Shown: piece by piece, positions 56,455 through 60,603 of the stretch
How positions within the stretch are numbered: position 1 is the stretch's first letter
Layout: every line of letters starts with the position of its first letter
Assembly: GCA_963422645.2 (NCBI GenBank)
Contig: CAXXVO010000002.1
Span: 96,001-160,000 of the forward strand
Direction: 5' to 3'
From: Alphaproteobacteria bacterium
GTDB taxonomy: Bacteria > Pseudomonadota > Alphaproteobacteria > UBA828
Length of the DNA: 64,000 nucleotides
Position numbers and translations under genes: made by a program
The notes under the pieces: generated by a model
Databases searched by the model: none
The model's input: only the letters and a program-made list of their open reading frames with translations
Told to the model about the DNA's origin: nothing

Positions 56455-56664
56455 AGCATATCCGTTTTAAACGGAACCATATCCGACGTTTCGGATGTAG
56501 TTTTGGCATTCTGCGGGCTCGATGGTGGCGATGAGGTGCCCGAGGTGGCGCCAAGTGTCCTCGAAGTCGCGCCTCTGCGCGTTGCGCATCCAGTGCTTGA
56601 TCTTGGCGAAGGCCTGCTCGATGGGGTTGAGGTCGGGTGAGTAGGGTGGCAGGAACCAGAGGCA
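56454..56664 (-). pseudogene. 3' fragment and end of a second type of IS630-family element
   Basis: [31 protein letters not shown]; its end abuts the CTAG formed by the edd stop. Confidence 0.85.
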
Positions 56665-56811
56665 GTCTCCGGTGCTGCGGATCGCCACCTTGGCGCTGCG
56701 CCCTTCGGCGAGGTGCCGGTCGATGAAGGGCACTGCGACGTTGAAGACGTTGGCGAAGGTCAGCGCGGTCGGCGTCTGTGCGGCATCAACCGCGACGGTG
56801 TGATCGTCCAT
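56665..56811 (-). pseudogene. 5' fragment of a benzoate-CoA ligase-like gene
   Basis: FNVAVPFIDRHLAEGR..KVAI, fused in frame to the IS630 fragment. Confidence 0.65.
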
Positions 56812-56988
56812 ACCGGTTCCCTGCCATCCCGATGTCCTTGTCTGCCCCCGCCGGACACGATCGCCGGATTCGCCTGCGTGGAGCGGCGCAATCGGAGTAC
56901 CCTATGCCCAAACGCGGGGGCCCAGCAGTCTCCAATTTCAGGGAGGTGTGCGCGCAAATCCGGCGCAGGTCGGGATCGTGAGGAGGCG

Positions 56989-57026
56989 ATGGTGACGTGG
57001 GATTACATCGTCGTGGGCGCGGGGAC
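56989..57026 (+). pseudogene. 5' stub of a GMC/FAD oxidoreductase
   Basis: GAGGAGG RBS plus MVTWDYIVVGAG, cut by the miniature element. Confidence 0.6.
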
Positions 57027-57126
57027 TGTTGATCGGCGCACGGGTTCGGTGCCGATCGGCGCGGTAACCCATTGATCTGGCTGGATTACGGGGGGTCAAC
57101 AAAGCGTGCTCTTGAGTAACAGATGC

Positions 57127-58545
57127 CTAAGCGATTGACGGCATTGGGTTCTGTTTTTCCTCTCCTTGCGTTTTCGGGATGAGTTGGAACCCGAGCTTTT
57201 GGGCTTGGCGGTCGAGATGAGCGAACTTTCTGTTGAGGCGCCGCTTCTCGTAGGCGCCGATGCCCTGCTCGACGTATTCCTGGCCCTCGGTCACCATGAG
57301 GTAGATCAGACAGGCGAGTTCGCGGGCGGTCGCCTTGATCGCGACGGGGGTGTCCATTCGGGCGAGCCTTGCGCGGTGCTTGGCGCCGATGAAGGTCTGG
57401 CTGCGGCGCGCGGCCATGGCCGCCAAGCGCAGGGCCTGTCCGACGGGGTTGACCGCCTTCGGCGACTTGCCGGGGAGATTCTTGCCGCCGCTGATCCTGG
57501 TTCCCGGCGCGAGCGCAAGCCAGGAGCAGAAGTGCTGAGCGGAGGGGAAGGCGGAGAAGTCCGGGCCGATCTCCGAGGCGATCACCAGTGCGGTACCGGG
57601 ACCGACGGTGGGGATCGCGGTGAGGTCGACGCCCATCATCTTGCGCAACGCCAGGGGCTGGATGCCCTCCTTGCCGGTGTCGTTGGTTGCGGCGTTCGCG
57701 GAGCGGCCCGACGCGGTGTCCGAGGTCGTGCCGGGGGCAGGGTCCGGTGCACCGCCCTCCGGGGGATCGTCCGGCGGTGTCAGGCGCTCGACCTCGGCCA
57801 TCACCCGGGCCTCGCAGTCGTCGATCTGCCGGGTCAGGAAGTCGTAGCGCTGCATGGCCTGTTCGAGGGCGAAGAGATGCTCCTCGCGCCACGTCCCCTG
57901 AAGGCTCGCGGCGATCGTATCGGCGTCGGCCTTGATGCCCCGGTGGCGGAGCGTCGCCAGGCGCTCCGGGTCACGCTCGCCGTCGACGATCGCGCGCAGG
58001 ATGCGCTGGCCGGTCAGTCCCGTGATGTTGGCGATCACCGAGTCGAGCCTGACGTTCATCTCGGTCAGCGCCTTTTGCATGTGCAGGACGCAGCGGGAGC
58101 GGTCCTCGGTCAGCCGCCTCATCTGGCGGGCGTAGGAGCGCAGCGGGCAAACCTCGTCGCCCGGACGGAACGCTCCCCGCAGCAGACCGTAGGACATCAG
58201 CTGCCAGATCCACTGGCAGTCCAGCACGTCGCTCTTGCGCCCGCCGATCTGCTTCGTCATGCGCGGCGGCACCAGCATCACCTCGAAGCCCGCGCGCTCC
58301 AGCGTCTCGTAGACCGGGATCCAGTAGACCGAGGTCGACTCCATTGCGACCTTCGTCACCCCGCACGACGCCAGCCACGCCGCCATCGCCGCCAGATCGC
58401 GGGTAAAGGAGCCGAACGAACGCACCGGCTCATCGCTGCGTTCCGCCTCGACCGCCACGAAGTGCCGGTCCTTGCCGATGTCGATCCCTGCGCAGTCAGG
58501 GTTCACCACCCTGAGGCGACGGGTTCTTCGAGACTTGCGCGCCAT
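57127..58545 (-). CDS. IS110-family DEDD recombinase/transposase
   Basis: GIDIGK, MESTSVYW, KSDVLDC (DEDD), C-terminal IASEIG..F.S..F.SW..L.P....SGGK with the conserved Ser. Confidence 0.93.
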   Translation of the reverse strand: MARKSRRTRRLRVVNPDCAGIDIGKDRHFVAVEAERSDEPVRSFGSFTRDLAAMAAWLASCGVTKVAMESTSVYWIPVYETLERAGFEVMLVPPRMTKQIGGRKSDVLDCQWIWQLMSYGLLRGAFRPGDEVCPLRSYARQMRRLTEDRSRCVLHMQKALTEMNVRLDSVIANITGLTGQRILRAIVDGERDPERLATLRHRGIKADADTIAASLQGTWREEHLFALEQAMQRYDFLTRQIDDCEARVMAEVERLTPPDDPPEGGAPDPAPGTTSDTASGRSANAATNDTGKEGIQPLALRKMMGVDLTAIPTVGPGTALVIASEIGPDFSAFPSAQHFCSWLALAPGTRISGGKNLPGKSPKAVNPVGQALRLAAMAARRSQTFIGAKHRARLARMDTPVAIKATARELACLIYLMVTEGQEYVEQGIGAYEKRRLNRKFAHLDRQAQKLGFQLIPKTQGEEKQNPMPSIA

Positions 58546-58559
58546 GGAACATCCTCCCG

Positions 58560-58816
58560 CCTTTCATCTCCGTCGCGAGCGGGGAGGAACCATGGTCGAA
58601 GTCCCATTCTCTTGAACGAGGTCGCGGGAAACCCGCGCCATCAGTGACCGGAGCCGACAAAATGGTTCGGGCCAAGCTTAACAGCGGGTGCCGCTACAGC
58701 ACGCCAGTGCACGAACGGCCTCTTCACCCCACCCGCCGCCAGTTCACGACCGAGGCGTCGCAGACACAAGCCCCCGTTACTCCCGCGACCGAGCCGGAGC
58801 GCCGCGCCGGTGGAAG
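58560..58816 (-). ncRNA. Candidate IS110 bridge RNA (boundaries approximate)
   Basis: About 270-nt non-coding left end with hairpins AGCGG-CAC-CCGCU and CGCGGG-UUU-CCCGCG, flanked by segments matching the target flanks and the element right end. Confidence 0.7.
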
Positions 58817-58826
58817 CTTAACAACA

Positions 58827-59221
58827 AGCGGGCGCAGCCAGCGCTTGGACTCCACCACGGCAAGGCCGAGCTCGTAGCGCCGCCATTCCTCGGCGAAGCC
58901 GTTGGCCTGGCCCTTCGCCGCTTCGTCCGCAAACAGCAAGCCGTCCGGCACGTCCACCCGGCCGTATGCGCTCAGGTTCTGCTGCCGCAGGCTCGCCGTC
59001 CACCCAAGCCGTGCGAGGACGGGCCAGATCAGATCATCCTCGGTCTGGCTTTCGTTGGGCGATGCGGCGACCGGGAGGCGGTCGCAGATCGCGCGCAGCG
59101 CGGCCTCGAGGTCTTCAAGCGACGCGTCGTCCAGTTCCTGCCAGTCGGGCAATCCGGTGATGGCGTCGCACAGGAAATCGCTGGCGAAGAGGCTCCCCTG
59201 AAATGCAGTGTCGAGGCTCAT
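58827..59221 (-). pseudogene. N-terminal fragment of a type IIG-like restriction-modification enzyme
   Basis: PNESQTEDDLIWPVL..LGW, PDGLLF and VVESKRW (PD-ExK nuclease motif); cut by the miniature element. Confidence 0.65.
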
Positions 59222-59552
59222 ACGCCTATGATCCACGATCCAGTTCGATATTTCAGCATCACGCCATAGGCGCGCGCCATCACGACCGCAGGCGGCGCAC
59301 TATGGCGAAACCTCATCGGCGACCCATCCCAGTCGAAGGGAGACTCCTTCGACCTCGACCTCCGCGGAAAGCTCATTCGTGCCGGAGACAGATGTGCCGA
59401 TGGCGTCGGCGAACGCCCGAAAATCGTCGAACCAGCTATGATTTTCGGAGAACGAGTGCACGAGCATCACCGCCCGACGGACCTTGTAGCGCTGCGCTTC
59501 GTATATCGCCGCTGCCGTGCGGTGTAGAAGCTGGTATCGCAGTTTCGAGATA

Positions 59553-60603
59553 ACCGCTTATGCACATGGCTCCGGTCGCGAGAGTTTGCCACCAGATGTT
59601 GAGGTTGAGGTTAGGGCGGGAGAACGGGTAGAATGTTGCCTATACGTTCCTGCCGACGGAGCCACCACATGAAACAGGTCGCCGACAGCCTCCTCGCCTT
59701 CCAGCACATGTTCCCGGACGATGACGCCTGCGCCGCCTGGCTGATCGAAATGCGCTGGCCGGACGGCTTCGTCTGTCCCGCGTGCGGCCATGAAAAGGGA
59801 TGGGCGCTGCGCAGAAAAGCACACACCTTCGAGTGCGCCGGCTGCCGCCGGCAGACCTCGGTGACGGCCGGGACGATCCTGCACGCCAGCAAGCTGCCGC
59901 TCACCGTCTGGTTCTGGGCCGCCTACCTGATGGCGACCCACTCCAACGGCATCTCTGCCCTGCAGCTCCAGAAACAGCTCGGTATCGGCTCTTACCGCAG
60001 CGCTTGGCTGCTCGCCCACAAGCTGCGCGCCAGCATGGTCGACCCCGAGCGCAACCCGTTGTCGGGCCTGGTGGAAATCGACGAGGCCAGCCTTCCATTC
60101 CGGACCAAAGACGATCCTCCCACCGGAGGGCAAGGACGCAGCCACGACGGCAAGATGCTCATCGTCGGCGCCATCGAACTGGGGGATGGAACCATCCCGG
60201 GCCGCCTGCGGCTGGCCGAAATCTCCTCCTACGGCGCCGCCGACCTCGGACACTTCGTCGAAACCGCCGCCGATCCCGACGCCATCGCGAAAACCGACGG
60301 CTGGTCCGGCTACGCTGCGGTCCCCGCCGATCGCCACAATGTCCATGTCGTCGGGAAGACCGCCGCTCACCTCGTCCTGCCGTGGATCCACCAAGTCTTC
60401 TCCAACCTCAAAGGATGGGCGCGAGGCGTCTACCACGGGCTGCGCCGCAAGCATCTGCAGGCCTATCTCGATGAGTTCGCCTTTCGCTTCAACCGCCGCA
60501 AAACCCGCCACGCTGCTTTCCGCTCGCTCTTCCGCATCGCCACCAATGCAAAACCCCTTACCTACAGCATGTTGATCGAACCGGAGCCATGTGCATAAGC
60601 GGT
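59553..60603 (+). mobile_element. IS1595-family element, copy 2 (transposase 59669-60598)
   Basis: Same length, IRs and protein as 30412-31462; 8-bp TSD TCGAGATA at 59545-59552 and 60604-60611. Confidence 0.95.

Follow-up and report, generated by a model that had tools for sequence, protein, structure and literature searches.

A predicted mirrored bridge RNA with guides on its 3′ loop strands in an alphaproteobacterial IS110-family insertion sequence

Which strands of a recombinase-associated RNA read the target, and which read the element's own ends? The question is raised by an IS110-family insertion sequence on the minus strand of a 64,000-nucleotide stretch of DNA (hereafter, the window; contig CAXXVO010000002.1, positions 96,001 to 160,000) from an Alphaproteobacteria bacterium. 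A first-pass annotation, made from the letters alone, had proposed that the non-coding left end of this element encodes a bridge RNA whose guides match the very site of insertion. On the comparative evidence below, we put at about 0.82 the probability that the element is an IS110-family insertion sequence, intact and active in the recent past, that carries a mirrored bridge RNA, with two guides of 5+2 nt on the 3′ strands of its loops and a short target guide on a 5′ strand.

Boundaries of the element and guides on the 3′ strands

The insertion sequence is 1,708 bp long, counting the right-hand AG (57110-57109), and its junctions read, on the recombinase strand, TGTTGTTA-AG|CTTCCACC...ACTCAAG-AG|CACGCTTT. 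Upstream of the recombinase gene, the non-coding region spans 271 nt, whereas the stretch beyond its stop codon measures only 17 nt. The empty target that had been predicted exists uninterrupted in the same genome (locus L007, ...TGTTGTTA|AGCACGCTTTGTTGACC), and filled and empty sites differ by the element and one AG only; the empty-site continuation also appears as loose ends at 57110 in two contigs from RNA-library studies (X4 and X7). Comparison of the copy boundaries and the empty site disclosed no terminal inverted repeats and no target duplication beyond the shared AG(C). The sequence TGTTGTTAAG stands at 5/5 left junctions. In the window copy the ends overlap the target by 3 nt (AGC); a core of GC or AGC, taken from this overlap, was rejected because a relative in the same genome at 76% identity and with different flanks (L005) shares only AG, as do the gammaproteobacterial relatives. 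Across the homologue alignment, AG is found at 25/25 left and 26/26 right boundaries. The genome (23 contigs) holds three full copies including that in the window, the other two (L002 and L003) at 99–100% identity, together with a 5′-truncated copy (L004) and left-end fragments (L006 and L012). We base recent activity on these near-identical copies, the fragments, and the empty site.

The recombinase matches PF01548 (1e-21) and PF02371 (5.5e-12) in Pfam and, at 260 bits where the cutoff is 140, the NCBIfam model NF033542 ("IS110 family RNA-guided transposase"), which agrees with the first-pass assignment to an IS110-family recombinase/RNA pair. Its match to IS621 chain 8wt6_A is weak (E 5e-6), and the TRISGG motif is invariant in 7 homologues. 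A length of 472 amino acids (aa) with a Pro/Gly-rich insert had also been remarked upon; the insert is present, but the length is normal for the subgroup, and the block varies in every homologue aligned. The 395–455-aa size of this IS110 subgroup has been put down to a variable region between coiled-coil helices (PMC11187229; here and below, published systems are cited from part of each source).

To define the comparative set, a contig scan returned 439 relatives, and 78 loci were kept. A relaxed loop-pattern parse yielded 85 loop pairs and 29 distinct RNAs; it gave no result at 29 loci, most of them flank-only or repeat loci and a few diverged or truncated (L046, L047, L058, L098, and L021). 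Alignment with MAFFT (alignment A2) comprised 28 distinct RNAs. Three loci without a left flank (L056, L092, and L093) were dropped from the flank counts, and the left flanks of four others (L055, L068, L070, and L089) were read by hand.

The three strings on which the first-pass annotation had built are all present on the minus strand (GCGTGCT at 58704-58698, TGTTAAGC at 58683-58676, and TCAAGAG at 58615-58609). In the first loop, UGUUAAG covaries with the left flank plus AG across the homologous RNAs. Position by position from -7 to -1, the flank is identical to the 3′ strand of loop 1 (alignment columns 76–82) in 22/24, 24/25, 25/25, 24/25, 25/25, 25/25, and 25/25 cases, and at -8 in 5/23; all four bases occur at 4 of the 5 variable positions. 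In a control comparison, 42 of 60 own upstream segments matched the target guide at 7 or more of 8 positions, compared with 18 of 883 cross pairings, and most of the misses among the 60 arose because the segment was too short for the gammaproteobacterial relatives.

On the donor side, UCAAGAG covaries in the same way with the right end of the element plus AG. Eight distinct right-end 7-mers (TCAAGAG, TCGAGAG, TCGGGAG, ATGGAAG, ATGAGAG, ATAAGAG, ATGAAAG, and ATAGGAG) each equal the segment in their own RNA. Each right-end position from -7 to -1 matches in 26/26 cases and -8 in 0/26, a count that is partly circular because the 7-mer itself had served to find the end at its homologous position; raw right ends show the same pattern of matches to the 3′ strand of loop 2. 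Since each base change in the left flank or right end is mirrored in the loop segments, we read UGUUAAG and UCAAGAG as guides, each of 5 nt plus AG. Covariation across homologues, which the first-pass annotation had named beforehand as its check, is thus seen for both 3′-strand guides. Among 2000 dinucleotide shuffles of the window copy's non-coding left end, the left-flank 7-mer arose in 49 and the right-end 7-mer in 28, and both together in 0/2000.

These covariations bear on another explanation, in which the left-end structure serves mainly translational control, as a structured 5′ untranslated region (UTR) possibly with an antisense RNA, and the flank matches are a by-product of protein-only recombination. 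The structured domain does end ~30 nt before the start codon, and the 5′ UTR of ISPpu9 is reported to inhibit translation, with an antisense RNA (PMC12288879). A protein-only route nevertheless leaves the base-for-base change of loop, flank, and end, through all four bases, unexplained, and the guides occupy unpaired strands flanked by conserved stems, like those of characterised bridge RNAs. We judge this explanation very unlikely, and note that translational control and guide roles can coexist. The coordinates of the guides and other features are collected in Table 1.

Table 1. Features of the insertion sequence and its surroundings, in window positions
Feature	Position	Strand	Basis
Insertion sequence	57109..58816	-	Copy boundaries in the same genome; empty site L007; RNA-library contig joint of exactly 1708
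Left target half TGTTGTTA + core AG (58818-58817)	58817..58826	-	Next to left end in 5/5 copies/fragments with unrelated outer DNA; joined to right half in L007
Right target half CACGCTTT	57101..57108	-	Copy comparison and L007; L002/L003 have CGTGGAAG instead
Donor half-site, right end, TCAAG + AG	57109..57115	-	Junction comparison of copies and homologues' right ends
Recombinase gene, 472 aa, DEDD RuvC-like domain and Transposase_20 with TRISGG serine motif	57127..58545	-	Pfam, NCBIfam
Pro/Gly/Ser-rich variable region, ~aa 256–300	57646..57780	-	Sole poorly aligned block, ~25–50 aa long among 7 homologues
Structured bridge-RNA domain, predicted, P1 5′ GGGUGGGG to P1 3′ CUCCCCGCU	58578..58734	-	RNAalifold on alphaproteobacterial and gammaproteobacterial subsets
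Stem P2a, encloses target loop, GGCC 58720-58717 with GGCC 58673-58670	58670..58720	-	Compensatory changes
Target loop 5′ strand GUUCGUGCAC; proposed short guide CGUGC 58713-58709, complement of core G + flank CACG, then A opposite core A	58707..58716	-	L005 and register test
Apical hairpin P2b of target loop, UGGCGUGC / GCACCCG; holds GCGUGCU 58704-58698	58685..58706	-	UGG, GUG invariant 28/28
Target loop 3′ strand CUGUUAAGCUU; guide UGUUA-AG 58683-58677	58674..58684	-	Identical to left flank + core
Stem P3, encloses donor module, GAACCAU 58668-58662 with AUGGUUC 58593-58587	58587..58668	-	Pairing and compensatory change
Apical hairpin P4 of donor loop, UGAUGGCGC...GCGACCUCG	58617..58643	-	Seven pairs changed on both sides; closing U.G invariant
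Donor loop 3′ strand; guide UCAAG-AG 58615-58609	58603..58616	-	Identical to right end + core
Sub-terminal inverted repeat, right copy, covarying 5 bp, GTTAC, directly inside right-end guide site	57116..57120	-	Complementary to left copy 25/25
Sub-terminal inverted repeat, left copy, GTAAC, 36 nt inside left end, after conserved GTCGCG	58776..58780	-	
Remainder of ~95-bp miniature element with hit terminal repeat (TGTTGTTAAGCACGC...GATCAACA)	57024..57108	-	Repeat family L007-L015; terminus common with IS21-family left end
170-aa open reading frame, no Pfam match, runs into miniature element	58724-59236	-	
Neighbours, including a DDE_3 transposase fragment and an IS1595-family transposase	56467-56811; 59633-60598	-; +	

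Fold of the RNA and the remaining guide sites

RNAalifold on all 28 rows missed the 3′ parts of P1 and P3 because alignment A2 misaligns these between clades; both were recovered on the alphaproteobacterial and gammaproteobacterial subsets and by direct complement search. The fold from all 28 rows has 22 pairs, 10 of which are changed on both sides. The closing stem P1 is complementary at 8/8 positions in most gammaproteobacterial sequences and weaker in alphaproteobacterial ones. P2a also occurs as GGUC/GACC, GACC/GGUC, GAUC/GAUC, and AACC/GGUU, with 3 of its 4 pairs changed on both sides. All tested positions of P3 pair in 25/28 sequences (7/7; 8/8 in L070), and its sequence varies between clades as GAACCAU/AUGGUUC, GAACCGC/GCGGUUC, GGACCGCG/CGCGGUCC, and GCACGGU/ACCGUGU. 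The order that had been expected, a target-reading loop followed by a donor-reading loop, was borne out. An Rfam search of positions 56500-59500 in evalue mode returned a chance long non-coding RNA match only.

Both apical hairpins are closed by an invariant U.G pair, and with other G.U pairs in the fold, this fits the sense strand only. Transcription of the functional guide RNA from the opposite strand is therefore extremely unlikely in our estimation: on that strand, the two invariant U.G and several G.U pairs become C.A or A.C mismatches, and the core falls at the 5′ ends of the guides, whereas the IS621 rule that both loop guides include the core puts it at their 3′ ends (PMC11208160). What speaks for the opposite strand is the abundance of antisense reads upstream of the recombinase gene in ISPpu9 and ISPpu10 (PMC12288879), and the libraries used here carry no strand information.

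For the sense-strand bridge RNA, the right target half is matched from the 5′ strand of the first loop. The segment 5′ of A-N-UGG follows the flank, being CGUGC for G|CACG in the window copy and GAUCC for G|GATC in L005, and within this genome the 5′ strand varies (UUCGUGC versus UUUGCGC in L006) and P2b is constant. In a register test, in which the base before A-N-UGG pairs with the core G, 46 instances from 25 distinct RNAs gave 3.45 of 6 pairs compared with 2.49 ± 0.19 after permutation. None of 5000 flank permutations (0/5000) scored as high, and offsets from -3 to +3 carried no signal; two of the 46 instances had misassigned flanks, which counted against the result. Pairing declines along the guide (18/26, 16/26, 12/26, 12/25, and 9/25). 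The 5′ target guide CGUGC is real, yet short and tolerant.

The first-pass annotation had placed the first target guide at GCGUGCU instead, inside a GUUCG/CGAAC stem, with GGCU as a weak second donor guide. That map has in its favor that GCGUGCU is a perfect 7-nt complement of core and right flank, covering both core bases, whereas CGUGC leaves an A opposite the core A. Yet GCGUGCU sits in the P2b stem, whose UGG and GUG are invariant in 28/28 RNAs with differing and unrelated right flanks, and L005 keeps GGCGUGC despite its flank GATCG. A 7-nt match of this type arises in 188/2000 shuffles, and the match is probably due to chance. The proposed enclosing stem gives way to P2a and P3, as CGAAC pairs with downstream GGUUC with compensatory changes and L005 lacks GUUCG; GGCU is part of a CGGC/GCCG stem. 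We consider it highly improbable that the map holds exactly as first drawn.

No comparable guide emerged for the left end. In the window copy the best candidate is 5 nt long, and 1795/2000 shuffles are as good. The extra C/CUU of the target loop 3′ strand was tried as a "handshake" with the left end (15/25, 5/25, and 5/25) and rejected because it fits the window copy and L022 only. A sub-terminal inverted repeat is complementary in 25/25 RNAs with data, its left 5-mers having been pre-filtered by a loose pattern. Five pair types were found (GTTAC/GTAAC, TTTAC/GTAAA, GTTCC/GGAAC, GTTTG/CAAAC, and GTTTC/GAAAC), and relatives at 45–49% identity show GAAAC/GTTTC by eye. Asymmetric in position, the repeat measures 5 bp in general and 7 in the window copy. 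Judging from sequence, it may contribute to donor definition at the end for which no RNA guide emerged.

Taken together, the left non-coding end would encode a bridge RNA in the sense of the recombinase gene, whose closing stem would hold two modules, each built of an internal loop with a conserved hairpin at its tip. Specificity would reside mainly in the two 5+2-nt guides of the 3′ strands, UGUUA-AG reading the left target half and UCAAG-AG the element's own right end, and CGUG-C on the 5′ strand of the first loop would read the right target half while tolerating mismatches. By analogy with IS621 and ISPpu9, a complex of recombinase and RNA would join two AG sites, excising a circle (right end-AG-left end), which would then insert at TGTTGTTA-AG-CRYG.

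Several observations weigh against this account. Two of the 25 left flanks (L055 and L077) match at 5/8 positions only. The 5′ target guide pairs only partly, as its average in the register test indicates; some families barely pair there (L059 type, 1–2/6; L068, 2/6; also L087), and L002 and L003, at CGTG sites, need two G.T/U.G wobbles with it. No RNA segment covaries with the left-end start, where the analogous register gives 1/25, 12/25, 5/25..., and a mutual-information scan for a left-end guide returned clade-confounded signals only. Folded as one RNA, the whole left end has a minimum free energy no better than that of shuffles (z = 0.96). A scan of 57050-58900 for consensus promoters and terminators, with the ends taken separately and unjoined, passed nothing. 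RNA-library contigs, from four studies, span relatives of the entire element at 90–99% identity, and they attest cover only, without ends, strand, or level, with DNA in the libraries a possibility. Finally, the circle junction is missing from the assembly of this genome.

Of other expression signals, the joined junction has no -10-like hexamer by eye, and a TTGNNN-17-TGAAGT pattern inside the left end, before the RNA domain, is kept in alphaproteobacterial relatives, also by eye. The higher depth over the left end in contigs X3 and X7 was not used as evidence.

End-to-end junctions, target site, and surroundings

The right-end/left-end junction predicted by the first-pass annotation, absent from this assembly as noted, does occur in the genome of a close relative and in a single RNA-library contig, likewise of a relative. 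In the former, GTTACTCAAGAG|CCTCCACC is found in many head-to-tail tandem copies in one metagenome-assembled genome (MAG), the element being 93–94% identical in amino acids. The latter has a joint from 58815 to 57108 that "goes back 1708," with 3 ambiguous letters equal to the AGC overlap; in this contig a circle and a tandem pair are indistinguishable, and a DNA origin is possible. Head-to-tail tandems are common in the clade (L025-L043, MAG OZ253557; L114 and L115). On Burkholderia and Caballeronia plasmids, two different IS110 elements stand in tandem, and the target guide of the downstream element matches the right end plus AG of the upstream one, so that elements can target each other's ends or the filled left junction. 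Extra AG units or long (AG)n runs directly follow the right-end AG at L054, L057, L061-L065, L073, and L074, and at L054 skipping the extra units makes the flank a perfect 5-nt match to the 5′ guide. These units may stem from slippage or repeated recombination at the core.

Partial copies show further breakpoints. The left-end fragment L006 (G000:C18:55926-56137) ends just before the donor-guide sequence (after ...GACCUCGUU) and runs into unrelated DNA, and this breakpoint and its continuation recur at 58615 in the RNA-library contigs X3 and X7, from two studies. Left-end remnants of 7–8 nt, CCTCCAC[C], lie immediately after TGTTAAG and before unrelated DNA on the minus strand of G000:C21 near 56616, and directly after the right end-AG of a full copy at L028; they look like footprints or deleted copies.

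The target itself is a terminal repeat carried by an IS21-family element and by its miniature derivatives. The sequence TGTTAAGCRYG occurs 76 times in the genome, compared with 5 for a reversed control, and 71 of the 76 are CGTG sites. Among the first 40 sites listed, all CGTG sites but one belong to a high-copy element, whose left terminus is identical at each of them and which encodes IstA-like (rve, Mu-transpos_C_2) and IstB_IS21 proteins and, on that account, is an IS21-family insertion sequence. It has ~70 copies, with left terminus TGTTGTTAAGCGTGGAAAAGTGACCCCC (for example L118, G000:C5:221150-224400), that appear identical over at least 110 bp, and the IS110 target is present at its left end only. 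The window copy and L004 sit inside ~95-bp miniature elements that share the IS21 terminus (family L007-L015; in the window, 57024-57108 with 58817-58826), whose inverted termini read TGTTGTTAAGCGCG...CGCGCTTAACAACA in the cleanest copy (C7:25352). Occupied sites number 2/4 for CACG and 2/73 for CGTG, which does no more than suggest a higher occupancy of CACG sites. The surroundings of the element in the window are a graveyard of mobile DNA (Table 1).

An IS110/IS1111-family element is reportedly already known that specifically targets another transposon's terminal repeat. The kind of target is the same here, with a different host element (IS21 family and miniatures), subgroup, and RNA position. 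In the present genome, then, an IS110 element parasitizes the terminal repeat of an IS21-family element.

In L002 and L003, the right flank CGTGGAAG comes close to the reverse complement of CTTCCACC (58809-58816), with which the element's left end starts, so that a 7-bp inverted repeat brackets a filled site. In ISPpu9, a comparable palindrome is common to the left end and the right target half (PMC12288879).

Comparison with known bridge and seek RNAs

The mirrored layout was found in all 28 distinct homologous RNAs and, by eye, in four relatives at 45–49% identity on Burkholderia, Caballeronia, Dinoroseobacter, and Bradyrhizobium plasmids, with the core apparently AA in two; the plasmid matches are named generically as "IS110 family transposase" only. 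The first-pass remark that the guides appear inverted relative to IS621 holds in that long sense-identical guides lie on the 3′ strands with an AG core, but the feature is clade-wide and not peculiar to this element.

With IS621 (Durrant et al. 2024; Hiraizumi et al. 2024) the element shares a DEDD/serine recombinase, an RNA encoded in sense orientation upstream of the gene, a target loop ahead of a donor loop, internal loops with guides on both strands meeting at a 2-nt core, and the lack of inverted terminal repeats, with only the core common to element and target. In IS621, each loop pairs through its 5′ strand with 8–9 nt of the bottom strand and through its 3′ strand with 4–7 nt of the top strand; all four guide pairings include the core, which on the gene strand reads CT (PMC11208160). 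The 5′ strands there are the long guides, identical to left flank and right end, and the 3′ guides are short, whereas here the long guides lie on the 3′ strands; the IS621-type layout of long 5′-strand guides with CT on the gene strand was not seen. Further differences are the AG core, the short 5′ target guide, the lack of a detected 5′ donor guide, the 472-aa recombinase, and the lack of an evident junction promoter. Written with CT on top, both loops show the IS621 geometry, with 5′ strands ending in C(A) and 3′ strands in AG, and the strong guides correspond to the right target guide (RTG) and right donor guide (RDG) types. Since the donor loop 3′ strand reads the right end and not the left-end start, we infer that the element is inverted relative to the core.

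In the seekRNAs of IS1111 elements (ISEc11, ISKpn4, and ISPa11; Siddiquee et al. 2024), the segment complementary to the top strand stands before the one matching it, and the IS110-type ISEc21 has the reversed guide order (PMC11187229). Our element has the IS1111-type order and, like IS1111 elements, sub-terminal inverted repeats. The IS1111 hallmark, an RNA region downstream of a 330–350-aa transposase, was not found; here the RNA lies upstream of a 472-aa recombinase, and the repeat is 5–7 bp with its left copy 36 nt inside, compared with 7–17 bp in IS1111.

ISPpu9 of Pseudomonas putida (Pares-Guillen et al. 2025) recombines and forms circles at AG on the gene strand, without a junction promoter and with a native promoter and long 5′ leader (PMC12288879). 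In common with it, the element has AG on the gene strand, a target in a repeated palindromic element, a long left non-coding end upstream of the gene, and a circle joined at AG, observed there and predicted here; the short right B box (16 bp) and longer left A box (43 bp) of ISPpu9 have sizes that would include both repeat copies seen in our element. The target differs, being an IS21 terminal repeat and not a repetitive extragenic palindromic (REP) sequence. The recombinase is ~52–57% identical to Pseudomonas homologues, and the gammaproteobacterial homologues flank REP-like sequences (GTGGCGAGGGAG|...|CTTGCTCCCGC and TGTAGGAG|...|CGGGC). From these REP-type flanks and the AG core we take the Pseudomonas homologues to be probable relatives of ISPpu9, a basis that is itself a further point on the opposing side, and the clade of the element appears to contain ISPpu9.

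ISPpu10 recombines at CT in the same REP site as ISPpu9 (PMC12288879) and also figures in Extended Data Fig. 10 of Durrant et al. (PMC11208160). Its RTG is strict over 5 positions and its left target guide (LTG) tolerant (10.64898/2026.03.19.712850). With CT on top, our element agrees, having a strict RTG-type guide of 5 positions plus core and an LTG-type guide that tolerates mismatches and wobbles. The two differ in that ISPpu10 has CT on the gene strand, a junction promoter, and a mapping that follows IS621 logic, whereas our element has its donor read the other way round. No ISPpu10-like paralogues were found in five Pseudomonas genomes.

A broader proposal, which we hold tentatively and rate below even odds, is that a clade of long IS110 recombinases in alpha-, beta-, and gammaproteobacteria, including ISPpu9 and the present element, uses a three-guide mirror RNA. 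Its two 5+2-nt 3′-strand guides would serve the left half of the target and the element's right end. No RNA would read the left end, which core and sub-terminal repeat would set, and orientation would be set only by how the donor loop reads the junction. If true, this would explain why one site receives ISPpu9 (AG) and ISPpu10 (CT) in opposite orientations, and a simple rule for insertion orientation would follow. Efforts to turn bridge recombinases into programmable tools for genome rearrangement draw almost wholly on IS621-type elements. A clade with its stringent guides on the other loop strand, with its donor read the other way round and apparently lacking both a junction promoter and an RNA guide to one half of the donor, would enlarge the range of possible designs, and the RNA domain, guides, AG core, and sub-terminal repeat provide an annotation map for it.

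That an IS110 element carries a bridge RNA was already known. In the main-text literature searched, we found no published loop mapping for this clade, including the ISPpu9 RNA, and so far as this search reaches, the clade-wide mirrored layout has not been mapped in print. Set beside the characterized systems, the element combines an upstream RNA, as in IS110, with an IS1111-type order of guides and, as in ISPpu9, AG.

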